Under the pieces are notes generated by a model. It saw only the letters and a program-made list of their open reading frames with translations. It was not told the origin of the DNA and searched no databases. Below, in pieces: positions 14,566 to 47,658 of a stretch of DNA of 64,000 nucleotides. The position numbers and the translations under genes were made by a program. Every line of letters begins with the position of its first letter. The stretch's first letter is position 1. Origin of the DNA: Ignavibacteriota bacterium (GTDB lineage Bacteria; Bacteroidota; Ignavibacteria; UBA10030); NCBI GenBank assembly GCA_963727825.1, contig CAVSHO010000014.1, forward strand, positions 42,897-106,896, read 5' to 3'.

Positions 14566-16247
14566 TATATCATTCTTTCACTTTTACTTTTTTTAGAATG
14601 CCTATGAATTTTATACCATACAACGAACTACAATCCGGGGAATCAGGATTTTCCCGCCTTTTTGTCGACTATATTGACAATTATTCGCTCGTTAAAGATT
14701 TTTTCATCGGCGATTTTCGTGATAAAAAACTATGGCAATCACAAATTAATGCGGTGTCACACCGAGAAATTGATCGATCTTCGCTTGCCCAAGTTCTTTT
14801 AAATCAGAATCGCGATTATCAATGCGGCATTAAGACATTAGCAAACATTGACCTTCTTCTTAGCGATAATACTGTTGCTATTGTCACTGGCCAACAGGTT
14901 GGCCTTTTCACCGGCCCCCTTTATACCCTGTATAAAATATTGACCACTCTCAAACTTACTGAGCAACTCTCTCAACAATATCCTGAATACAACTTTGTCC
15001 CAATATTTTGGCTTGAAGGGGAAGACCATGATATAGAAGAAGTAAGTTCTTTCTCTTTTCTCAATGCCTCAAATGAACTTCAAGAGCTGCGCTATCCATC
15101 TGAAGATAAAACAAGTGGGAATAATTTAGGTGCAGTTGGCGGTGTTCATCTAAGTGAATCAATAGGAATGCTTTTCCGCAATCTTCATCAAGCTTTGTTA
15201 CCGACAGAATATTCGCCAAAGGTTTTTGAGTTATTCGAAACAGCTTACCAAAAAGGAATGACCTTCAGCCGAGCATTTATCCATCTCGTCAATGTTTTAC
15301 TTGAAGACTCTGGACTTGTTTTTTTCGATCCCCATAATCCTGATACAAAGAAAATACTAAAGCCGATCTTTGAACAAGAATTAAACAATATCTCGCACAC
15401 ATGTCGTCTTGTTATTACTCAAAGTGAGATTCTTGAAAAGCAGTATCAAGCTCAAGTTAAACCAAGGGCGGTAAATCTTTTCCTATTCCATAACGGCGGG
15501 CGATATGCCATAGAACCGCACGAGAATGGATTCTCTTTAAAAGGAACACGCCGCACTTTTAGTAAAGAAGAAATGCTTGGATTTCTGAATACTGATCCGA
15601 ATCTTTTCAGTCCAAATGTTGTTCTCCGGCCAATCTGTCAGGATTACCTCTTCCCAACTCTCGCATATGTTGCAGGGCCATCTGAAGTTGCCTACTTTGC
15701 GCAGTTCAAGTTGCTTTATGAGAATTTTAACATACCTGAACCTATTATTTACCCTCGCTGCAGTGCAACTATCGTAGAGGAAAAGATTCAAAAGATTATC
15801 AATAAATATAGCCTTCAACCAAAGGATTTTTTCACTGATATAGAGGTTCTCAAGGAGCGAATATCCGCATCCATCTCTGATTTCAAGGTTGAAGAACTAT
15901 TCTCAAATACATTTGGAACTGTATCTGAAAGTTTAACTAGTCTAAAAGATGGCTTAGAATCAATCGATCCAACACTTGTCCCTGCAATGGAAAACACTCT
16001 TGTACGAATGCAGGGCGCACTTAACGGTTTGAAAGAGAAGACTCTTGCTGCTCAAGTACGTCAGCATGAAATATCATTTCGCCAATTGGACAAAGTGTCA
16101 ATTAGTCTCTTTCCAAATTCTAACTTGCAAGAACGAGAAATGAATATTATTTATTATTTGAATAAATATGGATTAGAACTATTACGATGGTTACGCAGTG
16201 AACTTGTTCTTGACAAATTTATGCACCAGATTATCAGTCTTGAATAA
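14562..16247 (+). CDS. bshC: Bacillithiol biosynthesis cysteine-adding enzyme
   Basis: VTGQQVGLFTGPLY, EDHD, FSPNVVLRP, YVAGPSE, LQER; true start may be ATG 14604. Confidence 0.92.
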   Translation: MIYHSFTFTFFRMPMNFIPYNELQSGESGFSRLFVDYIDNYSLVKDFFIGDFRDKKLWQSQINAVSHREIDRSSLAQVLLNQNRDYQCGIKTLANIDLLLSDNTVAIVTGQQVGLFTGPLYTLYKILTTLKLTEQLSQQYPEYNFVPIFWLEGEDHDIEEVSSFSFLNASNELQELRYPSEDKTSGNNLGAVGGVHLSESIGMLFRNLHQALLPTEYSPKVFELFETAYQKGMTFSRAFIHLVNVLLEDSGLVFFDPHNPDTKKILKPIFEQELNNISHTCRLVITQSEILEKQYQAQVKPRAVNLFLFHNGGRYAIEPHENGFSLKGTRRTFSKEEMLGFLNTDPNLFSPNVVLRPICQDYLFPTLAYVAGPSEVAYFAQFKLLYENFNIPEPIIYPRCSATIVEEKIQKIINKYSLQPKDFFTDIEVLKERISASISDFKVEELFSNTFGTVSESLTSLKDGLESIDPTLVPAMENTLVRMQGALNGLKEKTLAAQVRQHEISFRQLDKVSISLFPNSNLQEREMNIIYYLNKYGLELLRWLRSELVLDKFMHQIISLE

Positions 16248-16323
16248 ACTATTTACGCACCCAACTTTAGAACCTTCCGAAGGTCTCAGCAGATCTAGTT
16301 TGACCTTCGGAAGGTAACCTTGT
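16247..16323. repeat. 77-bp direct repeat copy 1 containing ACCTTCCGAAGGTC inverted pair
   Basis: 75/77 identical to 16489..16565; internal perfect 14-bp IR ACCTTCCGAAGGTC/GACCTTCGGAAGGT. Confidence 0.9.
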
Positions 16324-16326
16324 ATT

Positions 16327-16486
16327 CCTCGTTCCCGAGCTCCTTTATCCGCCATTTTGTTGGCGGGGCTTGGGAACGCCACTTCTGAAAGCTCCGCTTT
16401 CTTCCTTGTTACGAAGCAGAGCTTCAACCACTTCCGTTCCCAACAACTTGCCCGACATTCTTTGTGGCGGGGATGTTGGGAACAAG
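16327..16486. repeat. CTCGTTCCCAA..TTGGGAACGAG-family element with two nested 25-nt inserts
   Basis: Aligns to insert-free copy at 18574..18684; inserts at 16343..16367 and 16447..16471. Confidence 0.85.
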
Positions 16487-16488
16487 AT

Positions 16489-16565
16489 AACTATTTACGC
16501 ACCCAACTTTAGAACCTTCCGAAGGTCACAGCAGATCTAATTTGACCTTCGGAAGGTAACCTTGT
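16489..16565. repeat. 77-bp direct repeat copy 2
   Basis: See 16247..16323. Confidence 0.9.
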
Positions 16566-16699
16566 GATGACTGATATTTATGGTTTTAAGCATACTTATT
16601 ATACTAGTTCTGATACTGTTATTGACGGCAAGAACGCATCTACTCCAGCAGGAACAAATACTAATACTGCTACTTCATCATCTTATAAGAGTATCAGTA

Positions 16700-18252: not shown

Positions 18253-18370
18253 GAGAGGGGATTTTCCCGAAGGGATGGGGACGGCAAGGGGTGTGTCATT
18301 TATTCTTGCGTCCTTGATCTTCCAGCAATCGACTTCACACACCCCTGTGGTCCCCCTCTGGAGAGGGGAC
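18253..18370. repeat. CCCCTCT.GAGAGGGG / AGGGGTGTGT..ACACACCCCT palindromic repeat
   Basis: GAGAGGGGA..AAGGGGTGTGT ... ACACACCCCT..CCCCTCTGGAGAGGGGA directly downstream of the DUF559 remnant. Confidence 0.65.
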
Positions 18371-18372
18371 GT

Positions 18373-18570
18373 TCATCCTTTAGCGTGTGTTATCCGAGCT
18401 TCAATCCATTCCCGCAACTGCTCAACAATACCATCAACATTGCACTTCACATCCGAATCCCAAAATCGCATTATTGTCAACCCCAACGATTCCAGTTTCT
18501 CCTGTCTAATTCGATCGGCCTATTCCCTTCCGTCATGGGAATCGCCATCTATCTCAAGAATTAATTTCAA
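18373..18570 (-). pseudogene. DUF559/Vsr-like endonuclease C-terminal remnant
   Basis: Manual translation LKLILEIDGDSHDGRE*ADRIRQEKLESLGLTIMRFWDSDV..; 5' half missing, internal TAG. Confidence 0.8.
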
Positions 18571-18573
18571 TCA

Positions 18574-18684
18574 CCTCGCTCCCAAGCTCAGCTTGGGAGT
18601 GCCACTTCTGAAAGCTCCGCTTTCTTCCTTGTTACGAAGCAGAGCTTCAATCACTTCTGTTCCCAACAAGATGTTGGGAACGAG
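18574..18684. repeat. CTCG(C/T)TCCCAA..TTGGGAACGAG element, insert-free copy
   Basis: CCCAAGCTCAGCTTGGG..GAAAGCTCCGCTTT..GAAGCAGAGCTTC..CCCAACAAGATGTTGGGAACGAG. Confidence 0.85.
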
Positions 18685-19077
18685 ATAGCATCACCATTTT
18701 CGTCATTTTGAAATATTAATATTTATACCTTCTTAGAAGAAACCAGTTTCTGCCAAAATCCAGGAAATGAGATATCTGCACAATCGGTATTTTCTATAGT
18801 AATATTAGGAATTCTAAGCCCTGCTACTCCGAATGACATTGCAATCCGATCTTCCTTGTTACGAAGCAGAGCTTCAATCACTTCTGTTCCCAACAAGATG
18901 TTGGGAACGAGATAGCATCACCATTTTCGTCATTTTGAAATATTAATATTTATACCTTCTTAGAAGAAACCAGTTTCTGCCAAAATCCAGGAAATGAGAT
19001 ATCTGCACAATCGGTATTTTCTATAGTAATATTAGGAATTCTAAGTCCTGCTACTCCGAATGACATTGCAATCCGAT
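18624..19077. repeat. 227-bp tandem duplication including the aroA 3' end
   Basis: 18624..18850 matches 18851..19077 except C18819/T19046. Confidence 0.9.
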
Positions 19078-20233
19078 GATCACCATAACTAGGAATTAAT
19101 GCGCCTGAGTAATTTTTCTTCCCTTCAAAAGCAAATCCATCTTCATATTCTTCTATATCACAGCCCAATAAACGCAGATTATTCACAATAGCATGAATTC
19201 GATCAGTTTCTTTCGTTCTTAGTTCTCGCGCATCGTGAATGCTAAAACTGCCCTCTGCAAATAAAGCTGTAATCGAGAGAATTGGGATTTCATCTATAAG
19301 ATCAACCACTTCTGCACCACGTAGATCAATATTACTTTTCAATTCCGAATATTTGACAACAAGATCACCAATAGGTTCACCTTCGACGATTCTTTCATTT
19401 TCAACTTGGATATTACCACCCATTGTTTTGAATATATCCAAAATGCGTCTTCGTGTCGGATTAAGCCCGACATTTTGTATTGTGATATTTGATTCCGGCA
19501 CAATCAATCCAGTGGAAAGGAAAAACGCTGCTGCTGACATGTCTCCGGGAACAAAAAACTTCTTACCGTCAATTTTCATATCTGATTGGACTTCAACAAC
19601 ATTGCAGCCATTTATTGTTGTTGATCTCAAACCGAGCATTCGTTCAGTATGGTCGCGTGTTTTTGAATTTTCAATAACCGTTGTCAGACCGTCAGCAAAA
19701 AGACCTGCAAAAAGTAACGCAGATTTGACTTGTGCACTTGGTATAGGCAAGGTATATTGAATTGAATGAAGCTGTTCAACTGGTTCAATAAACAGTGGCG
19801 CAGTATTTGTTTCAGTACCATAAATATTTGCACCCATTTGTCGAAGCGGATCGATGATACGTTTCATTGGCCGCTGGCATAATGAAGAATCTCCAATAAG
19901 AACTGAATTAAATTTTTGTCCAGCAAGAATACCTGAAAGCAATCGCATAGTCGTACCTGAGTTGCCCGCGTTTAATGGCGCGGAAGCTTTCTGCAATCCG
20001 CGGCGTCCTTTACCATAGAATGAAATGTAATTTCCACGCTCGTTGATTTGAATTCCAAGTTGCTTAATACATGAAAGTGTACTAAGAGGGTCTGCAGCGT
20101 GCGAACACGAGCTTATTTCCGATACACCGTCTGCAATTGCGCCTATCAAAATGGCTCGATGAGAAATGGATTTATCCCCTGGAACTTGTAAAGTTCCCTT
20201 AAATCCTTTTATCTGTGGTATCGTAAGATTCAT
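18950..20233 (-). CDS. aroA: 3-phosphoshikimate 1-carboxyvinyltransferase
   Basis: PGDKSISHRA, GNSGTTMRL, SAQVKSA, KETDRI, DHRIAM. Confidence 0.96.
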   Translation of the reverse strand: MNLTIPQIKGFKGTLQVPGDKSISHRAILIGAIADGVSEISSCSHAADPLSTLSCIKQLGIQINERGNYISFYGKGRRGLQKASAPLNAGNSGTTMRLLSGILAGQKFNSVLIGDSSLCQRPMKRIIDPLRQMGANIYGTETNTAPLFIEPVEQLHSIQYTLPIPSAQVKSALLFAGLFADGLTTVIENSKTRDHTERMLGLRSTTINGCNVVEVQSDMKIDGKKFFVPGDMSAAAFFLSTGLIVPESNITIQNVGLNPTRRRILDIFKTMGGNIQVENERIVEGEPIGDLVVKYSELKSNIDLRGAEVVDLIDEIPILSITALFAEGSFSIHDARELRTKETDRIHAIVNNLRLLGCDIEEYEDGFAFEGKKNYSGALIPSYGDHRIAMSFGVAGLRIPNITIENTDCADISFPGFWQKLVSSKKV

Positions 20234-20304
20234 AAAAGAAATCCTCACACCGTTTATAAATTGTTTGTGATGTGAGGATATGTGCTCCTTGAAGTTGGAA
20301 ATGG

Positions 20305-41869: not shown

Positions 41870-44800
41870 CTATCCTTTTAGATGAACCGTCTCCTGCCCA
41901 AAAAGCTTTTTAACCGCATCCGTAAATTGTCTGTTTGGATCAATAGTATACTTGCGAGTTAAATATATCGAATTGTTGCTTAATCCGCTACCAGAGAGAT
42001 TCAAGATACATTGGCACTTACCTTGATTGTGTTCAATTAGCTTCACTAATTCGAACACATCCTTTTCCTTTATGATATCAAGATTCAAGTCGATAATGAT
42101 ACCTTTTGCGTATTTCTTTCTTACATCATCAATGCCGATAATTTCATTGACAATGACTTTAATTGCTTCTTCATTACCATCATTCTTCCCTATCATCATA
42201 ACTATGGAACCTACTTGGAGAAGAGCGGCATATTTTTGGAATGCATCAGCGAACACAATACAATCTGCTTTACCTGTAAAATCCTCAATTGTAACAAACG
42301 CCATGGTTCTATTTCGTTTATCTATTTTCTTTTTAATGTCAGAAATAATACCACATACATGGAGTGTAGAATTTGGTTTTATAGAATCTGCTTCGCCCAA
42401 TTTCGCTGTTGATAATCCATCAATCTCATCACGATATTTCAACAAAGGATGGCCAGATACATAAAATCCTAGTACAGTTTTCTCACGCGAAAGTTTTTCC
42501 GTTTCCGTCCAATCTGGAACATTACGAAACATGGGCCGATTTGTGACTTTCGCACCACCAAGATCGAATAAATTTGACTGTCCTTTTTCAAGTTGTTCTT
42601 GCAGATTCTGCCCATAAGCTATTGCAGCTTCGACATTACTAAATATTTGAGCGCGATTATTATGAAGAGAATCAAAAGCTCCTGATTGAATAAGTCCTTC
42701 AATTGTTTTTTTATTTGCCAAACGCAGATCGACGCGTATGCAGAAATCAAAGATATCTTTGAATCGCCCTTTCTCGCCTCGTGCTTTCACAATTTGTTCT
42801 ACAGCACCTGTACCGACATTCTTAATAGCGCTCAATCCAAAGCGAATTCCCTTTGGTGTAACGACAAAGTTAACACCGCTTTCGTTGACGTCAGGAGGAA
42901 GGACATCAATCCCTAATTTTCTGCACTCATCAATAAGTATTACTATCTTATCGGTGTTGTCCATTTCGCTGGAAAGTGTTGCAGCCATATATTCGGCTGG
43001 ATAGTGTGCCTTAAGATACGCCGTTTGATAAGCCAAAACTGAATACGCAACGCTGTGCGATTTATTGAAACCGTAGGAAGCAAATTTTTCAATCAAATCA
43101 AATATTTCTGAGGCAATTTTTCTCTCAATACTTTTTGCCACAGCATTCTCTACAAATTCTTTTTTCTGCTTAGCCATCAACTCTTTATCTTTTTTTCCCA
43201 TCGCACGACGAAGCAAATCTGCTTGCGAAAGGCTAAGACCGCCGATCTCACTGGCAATTCTTATTACTTGTTCTTGATATACAATTACTCCATAGGTCTC
43301 GCGAAGAATTGGTTCAAGTTTCGCGTGTAGATAGGAGATTTTCTGCTTGCCATTTTTTCTATCGATAAAGTCAGGTATGTTTTCCATTGGACCCGGACGA
43401 TATAGCGCATTCATGGCAACGAGATCATGAATAGATGTCGGCTTAAGCTTGCGTAAATAATCCTGCATGCCAGTACTTTCAAACTGGAACAGCGCCACAG
43501 TCTGTCCCCGTGTGAATAGTTCCAAAGTTTTTTGATCCGCTTCTGGAATTTTGGATAAATCCAATTTTATTCCATGTCCTTCTTCAACCATCTTCAGAGC
43601 ATCATCTATCACAGTCAGCGTACGCAAACCAAGAAAATCCATCTTGAGTAGACCGGCGTCTTCAAGATCCTTCATATTGTATTGCGTCATTAAATCGGTT
43701 TGTGGAGTTTTATACATCGGCACATAATCGCTAATGTCTCCTGGCGCAATTACAACGCCGGCTGCGTGGGTTGAAAGATTACGATTCATTCCTTCAAGTA
43801 CTTTTGCCGTATCAATCAACAGCTTTATTTTTTCATCGGAACTCTGATTTACCCATTTTAGATCTGGGACATTTTTTAACGCATCTTCAATGCGCGCCAC
43901 TTTTCCTTGAAATACCGGAATTTGTTTTGTTATAGAATCGATGACGGATAATTGAATACCGAGAACTCTACCAACATCCTTAAGTGCCGCACGGGATGAC
44001 ATTGTACCGAATGTGGCAATCTGCGCAACAGATTTTTCGCCGTACTTTTGTTTTACATAATCAATTACTTTTTCACGTTTATTATCTGCAAAATCAATAT
44101 CTATGTCAGGCATGGAAACACGATCTGGATTAAGAAATCTCTCAAAAAGCAAATCATATTTGAGTGGATCGACATCTGTGATTCCTAATGCATAAGAAAC
44201 GATGCTCCCTGCTGCGCTTCCTCTGCCCGGACCGACAGGAACATCCATCGAACGAGCAGCATTTATAAAATCCTGAACTATGAGAAAATATCCCGCATAT
44301 CCCATGTTCTTTATTACATTTATTTCATGAACAACCCGCTCTTCGATCTCAGGCGTGATTGTTTCATATCTTTTTGGGATTTTTTCTCGCACGAGTCGTT
44401 CAAAATATTCATTAAGATCAGTACTGCCTGCTTCCGGCGGAATAGGAAATGCCGGCATATGATTTTTATTTAATTCTATTTGCAGATTGCATTTGTCTGT
44501 AATTTCTAATGTAGATTGGATTGCTTCTGGATAATCTTTGAATAACGCGATCATTTCATCAGATGATTTGAAATAGAGTTGATCTGTTTTGTACCTAAGC
44601 GTCAGATAATCAGATGTGTTTGTGCTGCTCGCTTCCGGGATATAGAGCATGATATTATGCGGCAGAGCATGCTCTTGCAGGATATAATGGCAATCGTTTG
44701 TTGCAACCAATTTTATACCAAGTTCGCGCGCTATCTTAGGCGCACCTTCAAGGATAGACTGTTCGTTCTGCAAGCCATGGTTTTGAATTTCCAAATAAAA

Positions 44801-47273: not shown

Positions 47274-47581
47274 CTGTACCCCCGAAAGGATTCTCCCGAT
47301 GCATCCTGCATCGGGACGACCAACGGTTTAGTACCAATGTAACAAAAGTTAGCAAACGGATAACAGTTAACTTTTAATTTGCATTGTGAATCCCGCTTTA
47401 GCAGGAGATACTATTCCAAAGAATTACCTGTACCCCCGAGAGGAGTTTTCCGATGCATCCTGCATCGGGACTACCAACGTTTTAGCCCCAATGTAACAAA
47501 AGTTAGCAAACGGATAACAGCTACCTTTTAATTTGCATTGTGAATCCCGCTTTAGCAGGAGATACTATTCCAAATAATTAC
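47274..47581. repeat. Two 154-bp tandem units each carrying a tRNA-Arg 3' half with the T-arm replaced by a hairpin
   Basis: CTGTACCCCCG at 47274, 47428 and 47582; TCCCGATGCA-TCC-TGCATCGGGA at 47294..47316 and 47448..47470. Confidence 0.9.
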
Positions 47582-47584
47582 CTG

Positions 47585-47658
47585 TACCCCCGAGAGGAGT
47601 CGAACCTCCGACCAACGGTTTAGGAAACCGCTGCTCTATCCATCTGAGCTACGGGGGC
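47585..47658 (-). tRNA. tRNA-Arg(CCT)
   Basis: GCCCCCGTAGCTCAG..GCGGT-TT-CCT-AA-ACCGT..GGTTCGACTCC. Confidence 0.95.

Follow-up and report, generated by a model that had tools for sequence, protein, structure and literature searches.

The stretch of DNA analysed here, referred to as the window, is 64 kb in length and corresponds to positions 42897–106896 of contig C14 of G000, a 14-contig assembly of 3.12 Mb with a G+C content of 41%. It contains two copies (A and B) and one partial copy of a MITE-like repeat. The repeat is ∼115 nt in size and carries one terminal hairpin at each end, with arms of the TCCCAA(G/A)C type. Both terminal hairpins are filled by mini-hairpins (guests) in copy A and are empty in copy B. 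The features of the region are as follows; R1 is a covariance model built from an alignment of 26 guest copies.

16247–16323, plus strand: 77-nt REPIN with ACCTTCCGAAGGT arms, left of host copy A
16327–16489, plus strand: host copy A of the MITE-like repeat, with TCCCAAGC-type arms and both terminal hairpins filled (alignment)
16344–16367, plus strand: guest 1, 24-nt mini-hairpin of the TTTA subfamily in the left terminal hairpin loop of copy A (alignment, fold, R1)
16447–16471, plus strand: guest 2, 25-nt mini-hairpin of the CTTG subfamily in the right terminal hairpin loop of copy A (alignment, fold, R1; C14:59343–59367)
16489–16565, plus strand: second copy of the 77-nt REPIN, right of host copy A
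18406–18576, minus strand: broken DUF559 gene fragment with two stops (C14:61302–61472), abutting host copy B
18574–18687, plus strand: host copy B of the same MITE-like repeat, both terminal hairpins empty (alignment, fold)
18850–18914, plus strand: partial host copy (right half, hairpin empty), product of the perfect 227-nt tandem duplication 18623–19076

The 77-nt REPIN bracketing copy A is the REPIN that flanks a RAYT gene at C7:111489. The DUF559 fragment belongs to the context of the locus, and a role of it in guest movement is unsupported. Two features fall within the 227-nt tandem duplication, namely the 3′ end of the gene for EPSP synthase (18950–20248, minus strand) and the right half of copy B. 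The duplication is either genuine and recent or an artefact of assembly.

Copies A and B can be aligned along the entire host element with the exception of two blocks. Block 1 comprises 25 nt of A (16343–16367) in place of the single central loop base 'A' of B; block 2 is a clean 25-nt insert in A (16447–16471), located between CAACAA and GATGTTGG. Folding placed both blocks inside host hairpins, which are formed by TTCCCGAGC/GCTTGGGAA and GTTCCCAACA/TGTTGGGAAC, respectively. The left loop of empty hosts in other species has a variable central base (T, A, G or C); because base 16343 occupies the column of this variable base, guest 1 was read as 24 nt (16344–16367). The two extra blocks that an earlier note on this DNA had described within the host palindromes of copy A were thus confirmed by alignment and folding, with block 1 rescored to 24 nt. 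No duplicated target bases are present beside either block in the A/B alignment. In the single-stranded DNA fold, each guest hairpin stacks on top of its host stem; the guest 3′ arm continues directly into the host 3′ arm, and the 7–8 unpaired bases are located on the 5′ side only.

The doubly filled composite host is present again in the same assembly, at C8:61550–61690. Guest 2 also occupies the same host hairpin at C8:61665 and C8:57770, and it is identical in the three host copies. The recurrence of composite A on C8 and of guest 2 at C8:57770 indicated that hosts were copied when already filled.

The two blocks are different members of one family (TTTAT... and CTTGC...), and they are the only R1 guest copies in the window. 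The guest module contains one 4-nt tail, YTTR (TTTA, CTTG or CCTG in the 26 aligned copies), one 6-bp G+C stem (YCCGCC/GGCGGR) and one T-rich loop of 8–9 nt; the consensus of the 26 copies, which come from G000 and its genus, is TTTACCCGCCGTCTTTTTGGCGGG. Stem pairing holds in 98% of the alignment cells. Pair 5–26 covaries as CG (14 copies), UA (8) and UG (4), and pair 8–23 as GC (24) and AU (2); the observed covariation score was reached by none of 500 shuffles.

With R1 we detected 37 guest copies in G000 at E≤0.01, of which 20 are training members of the model and a few lie on strain-duplicate contigs. Guest 1, itself a training member, was matched at C14:59240–59263 with an E-value of 5.7e-7. 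One loose regular expression found 40 copies in G000, compared to 4–9 in five Markov-1 simulations, which is above the chance level. Most of the G000 copies are different from one another in sequence and therefore look old. They are mostly extragenic: 33 of the 37 are not spanned by any open frame of at least 190 aa, at most four lie in such frames, and only one is clearly genic. Judged by eye, the guest consensus is open in five or six of its six reading frames. Rfam returned no family at E≤1 for 16200–16600 and only three tRNAs at gathering score over the whole window. G000 also carries stretches of 4–14 kb twice, at 93–99% identity (C4, C5 and C6 versus C7 and C10; C7 versus C8; C2 versus C14). 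Together with the 6.55% contamination of the assembly, these duplicates suggest that two strains were binned together, in which case some of the counted repeat copies are not independent.

To examine the position of the guests, we took the 20-nt flanks on each side of every copy and searched for a perfect stem within 5 nt. Flanks forming a stem of at least 6 bp were found for 15 of the 37 G000 guests, compared to 0.9% of 20,000 random sites; for stems of at least 8 bp, the numbers are 11 of 37 and 0.085%, respectively. The guests are thus enriched inside other inverted repeats, as the earlier note had predicted. Further guests, guest 1 included, have flanks that pair with one mismatch or wobble. 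The 15 paired cases have a regular junction geometry: eight show a 3′ offset of 0 and none has one above 2, the 5′ offset is 1–4, and the leftover host-loop bases and the guest tail are all unpaired on the 5′ side. The other 22 guests have no clear apex position by the 6-bp criterion; several of them lie between a hairpin and the adjoining box of another repeat, and some sit beside other repeats rather than in them.

Seven or more unrelated hairpin repeats serve as hosts, most of them REPs or REPINs of different RAYT genes: the TCCCAAGC MITE, GGGAGA..TCTCCC, GTAGAGACGTTCAATTGAACGTCTCTAC, GTAGGGATTTGAT, the AACCTTGTCAAGGTT REPIN, GGTCAGGAC and CTCTCCGACCGC. Seven other hairpin families of G000 served as control and are free of such nesting; it was seen only in TCCCGAC (6 of 11 copies). 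One locus of a sister genome (L195, G005:C34:39150–39800) shows nesting of three levels: a CTCTCCG...CGGAGAG host hairpin contains a guest, and the loop of the guest contains an insert of ∼58 nt with another hairpin.

To compare filled and empty sites, we used the filled copy as query and fetched 20 loci of the host family from the genus. Of the left host hairpins, four are filled and seven empty; of the right ones, two are filled and 13 empty. The guests within one host family vary in both subfamily and loop. Empty loops match the consensus loops of their families, exemplified by nine perfect AGAGACG...CGTCTCT copies; another empty host hairpin is the GTAGAGACG REP.

Eight guest loci of G000 were also compared with sister species, yielding three clean empty orthologues, one partial case and four uninformative ones. 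At C9:153759, G000 carries a REP plus 24 nt; in G005 the same stop codon is followed by the intact REP, GGTAGAGACGTTCAATTGAACGTCTCTAC. At C9:281015, the second hairpin of a MITE holds a guest in G000; in G009 the same MITE lies at the same intergenic site with this hairpin, GGTCAGGACGTAAGTCCTGACC, empty. The third clean case is the genic copy at C7:138603, where the 24-nt guest lies in frame in a 3391-codon YD-repeat frame. G005 has no insert at this position; the YD repeat has a spacing of 28 aa in G000 and of 20 aa in G005, the latter being close to the spacing of the next repeat unit. In the partial case, C11:368572, the REPIN of G006 has a different 18-nt spacer. At C7:127915, C1:162027 and C10:208051 the orthologue flanks are too diverged or lack synteny, and at C9:161961 the whole 169-nt MITE together with its guest is absent in G005 and G006. 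No target duplication was found at the three clean orthologous junctions, so the earlier remark that none is evident now extends from the window to sister species.

Filled and empty allele pairs, which had been proposed as a check, were thus obtained from sister genomes; strain-level comparison yielded none. Between the strain-duplicate contigs (C4/C5/C7, C6/C10, C7/C8 and C2/C14) there is no guest-sized filled/empty difference, and the sole gap of at least 8 nt is one 9-nt indel seen in two contig pairings. No 24–25-nt indel was listed in contigs of four public runs of one study, which are short, of low depth and cover parts of the stretch. One public contig may be chimeric: a stretch of 50 shared bases connects the flank and the empty left hairpin of B with the right half of A in its filled form.

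These data bear on the direction of the change. The long form could be ancestral, with the empty hosts arising by precise deletion of the inner hairpin, for example by slippage across the nested hairpin. In its favour, nested hairpins could plausibly be hot spots for deletion, the assembly contains the doubly filled host twice, and several species of the genus have filled hosts. However, seven or more unrelated hosts contain the same 24-nt sequence, as do its own loop and one coding repeat whose canonical period is that of the empty form; empty loops equal the consensus loops of the REP families; and empty sites outnumber filled ones despite the use of a filled query. Deletion from a long ancestor is therefore very unlikely, and the empty orthologous sites in sister species indicated that the direction is insertion rather than deletion, in strong disfavour of the long-form-ancestral possibility that the earlier note had raised against itself. 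Its description of the blocks as ultra-short, non-autonomous and structure-targeted inserts agrees with the apex enrichment and with the paralogous and orthologous empty sites. That the guest is a mobile insert we consider highly probable.

The guest is not restricted to G000. All 16 genomes of the genus carry it, with 4–40 R1 matches each (E≤0.001). The genus includes one genome assembled as a single contig, which has 27 copies, so assembly fragmentation is not the cause. In a sample of 151 genomes of the phylum, 29 gave R1 matches; multi-copy carriers, with up to 41 copies, belong to the class of the window only, and the other classes gave single weak matches. A strict pattern scan over one genome per species returned at least 117 stretches. 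Among the matches listed, many come from records with the labels Ignavibacteriota, Melioribacteraceae, Bacteroidota, Chlorobiaceae, Desulfobacterales, Desulfatiglandales, Pirellulales, Sedimentisphaerales and Phycisphaerae. These relatives suggest that the organism of the window is a member of the Ignavibacteria lineage. Ten genomes reached via such records have R1 counts of at least 121 in one and of 63, 35, 35, 15, 15, 12, 10, 5 and 1 in the others; the guest is multi-copy in records labelled Desulfobacterota, Planctomycetota and Bacteroidota. The clear carriers are metagenome-assembled genomes or genomes of unstated origin, and lone matches in isolates (for example Shewanella, Vibrio and Pantoea) look like chance. 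Two records labelled Synechococcus sp. UW140 (L061 and L149) belong to one genome, G187, which carries 35 guests; its phylum-level sample is identical to that of G000, and the Synechococcus label conflicts with this grouping.

Nesting recurs across phyla. Guests are found in their own loop (L075, L095, L112 and L145), in one triple nest (L121), in direct tandem arrays (for example L125) and inside other hairpins (L047, L072, L078, L092 and L151). Among the 123 cross-phylum pattern matches listed, from which five Saccharibacteria matches resembling shared coding sequence were excluded, only 15 have pairing flanks, with a control level of 1.2%; self-nesting was seen in five and tandem adjacency in 13. 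One guest of G176 (L229, 4754–4777, C33) is located in coding-like DNA, where it would add EPAKQTAGR in frame; it is a possible second in-frame genic insertion.

Two further explanations have to be judged against this distribution. One ancient insertion may have spread by gene conversion or template switching among host copies, and by duplication of filled hosts, with no dedicated transposition. The TCCCAA(G/A)C arms shared by the left and right host hairpins, the identity of guest 2 in three copies of the same host and the movement of whole composites as units, such as the 169-nt MITE with its guest, are all in line with such a process. It cannot, however, bring a guest into hosts with unrelated arms, into the YD-repeat gene or across phyla, and the guests of one host family vary in subfamily and loop; we regard it as quite unlikely. 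Alternatively, the motif may be a functional site, either a protein-binding hairpin or an RNA element, that is under selection and arises repeatedly without being mobile. Stem, tail and loop are strongly conserved across phyla, as such a site would be, but its presence inside the loops of other repeats, self-nested, in tandem arrays and in frame within genes, the lack of any Rfam family in the search described above, and copy numbers from 4 to 40 within one genus make this explanation extremely improbable.

Regarding the enzyme that may move the guests, the earlier note had pointed to HUH/RAYT or DUF559-type nucleases and had placed both in the window. The contig of the window has no Y1/RAYT match, and DUF559 is present only as the broken fragment at 18406–18576. 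G000 has nine matches to PF01797 (Y1), on C7, C8, C9, C10 and C11; several of these are RAYT-like genes flanked by their own REPs or REPINs, and those REPs serve as hosts. Guests lie within about 1 kb of four of the nine Y1 loci, always inside the REPs of those genes, and no bare guest flanks any of the nine. No guest was found within 1.5 kb of any of the 30 Y1 loci in five genomes reached via other-phylum records. At the 117 cross-phylum loci among the matches listed, relatives of the G000 Y1 proteins are near the guest at one locus, and the gene families that recur near guests are generic ones only. Within the class, 13 of the 14 guest-rich genomes and 10 of the 17 guest-free ones have Y1; for DUF559, the numbers are 10 of 14 and 8 of 17, respectively. 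The genomes of this comparison are kin and not independent. G153 has 11 guests and no PF01797 match, and G183 has 12 guests and one match of 26 bits. Neither protein family tracks the guests well, and as mobiliser DUF559 was rejected since it fails to discriminate guest-rich from guest-free genomes. IS200-like genes beside guests of G176 were rejected as parents; on inspection, these guests occupy a GCCTGCC hairpin and coding-like DNA rather than the IS ends. Guest orientation in G000 has no bias relative to local GC skew (12, 11, 10 and 4 in four classes), a comparison of low power.

The guest could also be an ordinary REP whose cognate RAYT is present or was recently lost, the nesting being a by-product of BIME-like mosaic building rather than of loop targeting. 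The nine Y1 matches of G000, several with their own REPs or REPINs, and the enrichment of guests near them fit this explanation, and in the accessible part of Di Nocera et al. 2013 REPs inserted within palindromes are noted. On the other side, no RAYT is flanked by bare guests, the guest has no GTAG or CGTC tag and forms no REPIN doublets, the junction geometry is regular, and the host repeats are not nested in one another. We consider an ordinary REP unlikely.

The preferred reading is a non-autonomous mobile module of 24–25 nt, inserted mostly in hairpin loops and moved by a trans-acting enzyme; taken as a whole, this account is probable, less securely so than mobility itself. Weighing against it are the 22 of 37 G000 guests away from a clear apex, the low share of apex positions in the cross-phylum set (15 of 123) and the lack of filled/empty polymorphism in the strain-level and public contigs compared. 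The module is found inserted, with no target duplication, in sequence that is otherwise intact, most often in the unpaired loop of another hairpin repeat, with its 3′ arm abutting the host 3′ arm or lying within 2 nt of it. It occasionally lands in coding DNA, where 24 nt preserve the frame, and filled hosts are copied together with their guest. We infer that a trans-acting, sequence-specific enzyme acting on single-stranded or extruded hairpin DNA may excise or copy the module; the enzyme would recognise the hairpin and the tail and join the module into unpaired DNA at the 3′ loop-stem junction. IS200/IS605 TnpA and TnpA-REP proteins leave no duplication, read a hairpin together with a 5′ tetranucleotide and need single-stranded targets. 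Because HUH enzymes have these properties, a RAYT-like HUH Y1 enzyme is the leading candidate for the mobiliser by analogy, a tentative and rather doubtful one. The conservation of the guest sequence across phyla points to a dedicated enzyme, which would be a putative one. It is possible, if short of probable, that this cross-phylum family of 24-nt hairpins is among the smallest transposable units known, and that a horizontally spread enzyme, not necessarily a RAYT, joins the module at loop-stem junctions. If true, REP-like repeats would have a general route to colonise and remodel the hairpins of each other, occasionally adding 8 residues to proteins.

SDR4, SDR5 and SDR6, the small dispersed repeats of Nostocaceae reportedly described by Elhai and colleagues in 2008, are said to be 21–27 nt in size and to nest in other repeats. 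In the accessible parts of the citing papers, SDRs are described as 'some 20 bp', 'tandemly repeated' and elements that 'might be mobile' (PMC2884548), the insertion of SDR5 in the HIP1 palindrome is placed precisely between bases 3 and 4 (PMC4390886), and SDRs are reported in Nostocaceae only (PMC5861425). The earlier note knew of no named system; the SDR elements of Elhai et al. 2008, known to us via such citing papers, are a named precedent. They are the closest described precedent of the guest, compared here by the descriptions of citing papers and not by sequence. Like them, the guest is 24–25 nt in length, dispersed and multi-copy (37 in G000), and it is precisely inserted inside palindromes or repeats, at apexes in the proportion given above. 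Different from the SDRs, it occurs in the Ignavibacteria-like class and in records of Desulfobacterota, Planctomycetota and Bacteroidota. In the accessible literature, the source paper excepted, we found no description of a loop-stem-junction preference in REP hairpins or of cross-phylum conservation for SDRs; nor did the literature searched, Elhai 2008 and its supplements aside, contain a description of this guest family outside Nostocaceae.

The guest also resembles the REPs of RAYT systems in being a short G+C imperfect palindrome of the 20–40 nt class with a conserved 5′ tetranucleotide, dispersed, mostly intergenic and free of target duplication. REPs carry a GTAG or CGTC tag at one end, as stated in the accessible part of Di Nocera et al. 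2013, whereas the tag of the guest is YTTR. The REPs inside palindromes mentioned there are the converse of the guest arrangement. Other differences are the lack of a cognate RAYT flanked by guests at the nine G000 loci and at the 30 loci of five other genomes, the single, self-nested or direct tandem arrangement in place of inverted REPIN doublets, and the low copy number of 4–40 per genus genome. Insertion sequences are known that use related targets: IS1397/ISKpn1 and some IS110/IS1111 members target REP loops or hairpins, and they are full IS of ∼1–1.5 kb encoding a transposase. Tobes and Pareja reportedly treated insertion sequences targeting REPs in 2006. These elements and the guest share the apex of a palindromic repeat as target; the guest differs in being 24 nt in size with no coding capacity.

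Rickettsia palindromic elements are lineage-specific and about 100–150 nt in length. The guest differs from them in its 24–25 nt, its cross-phylum occurrence and its one clearly genic copy in G000. It resembles both these elements and the genic REPs (REPs inside genes are reported in the accessible part of Di Nocera et al. 2013) in lying in frame in the YD-repeat gene of G000 and probably in a second gene in G176. It differs from DDE-type MITEs in having no target-site duplication at two window and three orthologous junctions, and from IS200/IS605-derived PATEs in having one hairpin only; the inspected IS200-like genes do not end in guests.

The guest belongs among the very small mobile palindromic repeats, with an unusually clear structural target and an unexpected cross-phylum reach. 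The spread of very short palindromic repeats such as REPs and SDRs is still largely inferred, and in this family the ends are exact, the junction geometry is defined and filled/empty sites differ cleanly between sister species, which opens the mobilisation question to experiment and phylogenetic profiling. REP hairpins are in turn targeted by smaller parasites, giving rise to nests of three levels, and proteins can be lengthened in frame by a 24-nt module. In annotation, guest modules account for many 24–25-nt indels in intergenic hairpins of Ignavibacteria-like, Desulfobacterota and Planctomycetota assemblies.

Several other hairpins of the region and its relatives deserve mention. G000 has eight DUF559 matches, the window copy (18406–18576, minus strand) and others including C1:31879, C11:387206, C10:213128 and C7:238432. 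DUF559 genes tend to have a hairpin element nearby, at a distance of about 100 nt or less. These elements are of the CCCTCTCC or the CCCCTCC kind, carry a GGGGTGG/GGGTGAGG box and may be remnants of a small DUF559-carrying element; both kinds of hairpin are also found solitary, about a dozen times each.

Additional guests had been suggested in the window at 1889–1918 and ∼18263–18285; both lack an R1 match, and neither has a paralogue or an empty copy in the genome. Those suggested in tRNA T-arm copies (47294 and 47448) are not family members. There, a 28-nt stretch holding a TCCCGATGCA-TCC-TGCATCGGGA hairpin replaces 11 nt of the tRNA T arm, which is not a clean insertion, and the two tandem units share the replacement, so it represents one event. 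At 47276–47658, tRNA-Arg(CCT) on the minus strand is preceded by these two tandem units, each 154 nt in length and each starting with a copy of the 3′ end of tRNA-Arg(CCT).

At 1880–1935 of the window, ATTCCC...GGGAAT arms surround a CCTGC...GCAGG hairpin; elsewhere in the genome the same arms surround TCCCGAC hairpins, which suggests a second host-guest pairing. The first GTCAGGA hairpin of one MITE is empty in G000 (L183, C9:279800–282300), whereas in G009 (L239, C5:105500–105950) it is occupied by a CCCGCAAAGCGGG hairpin of 13 nt; the inner part of this MITE is inverted between the two genomes. The 13-nt hairpin is a second, shorter apex guest.
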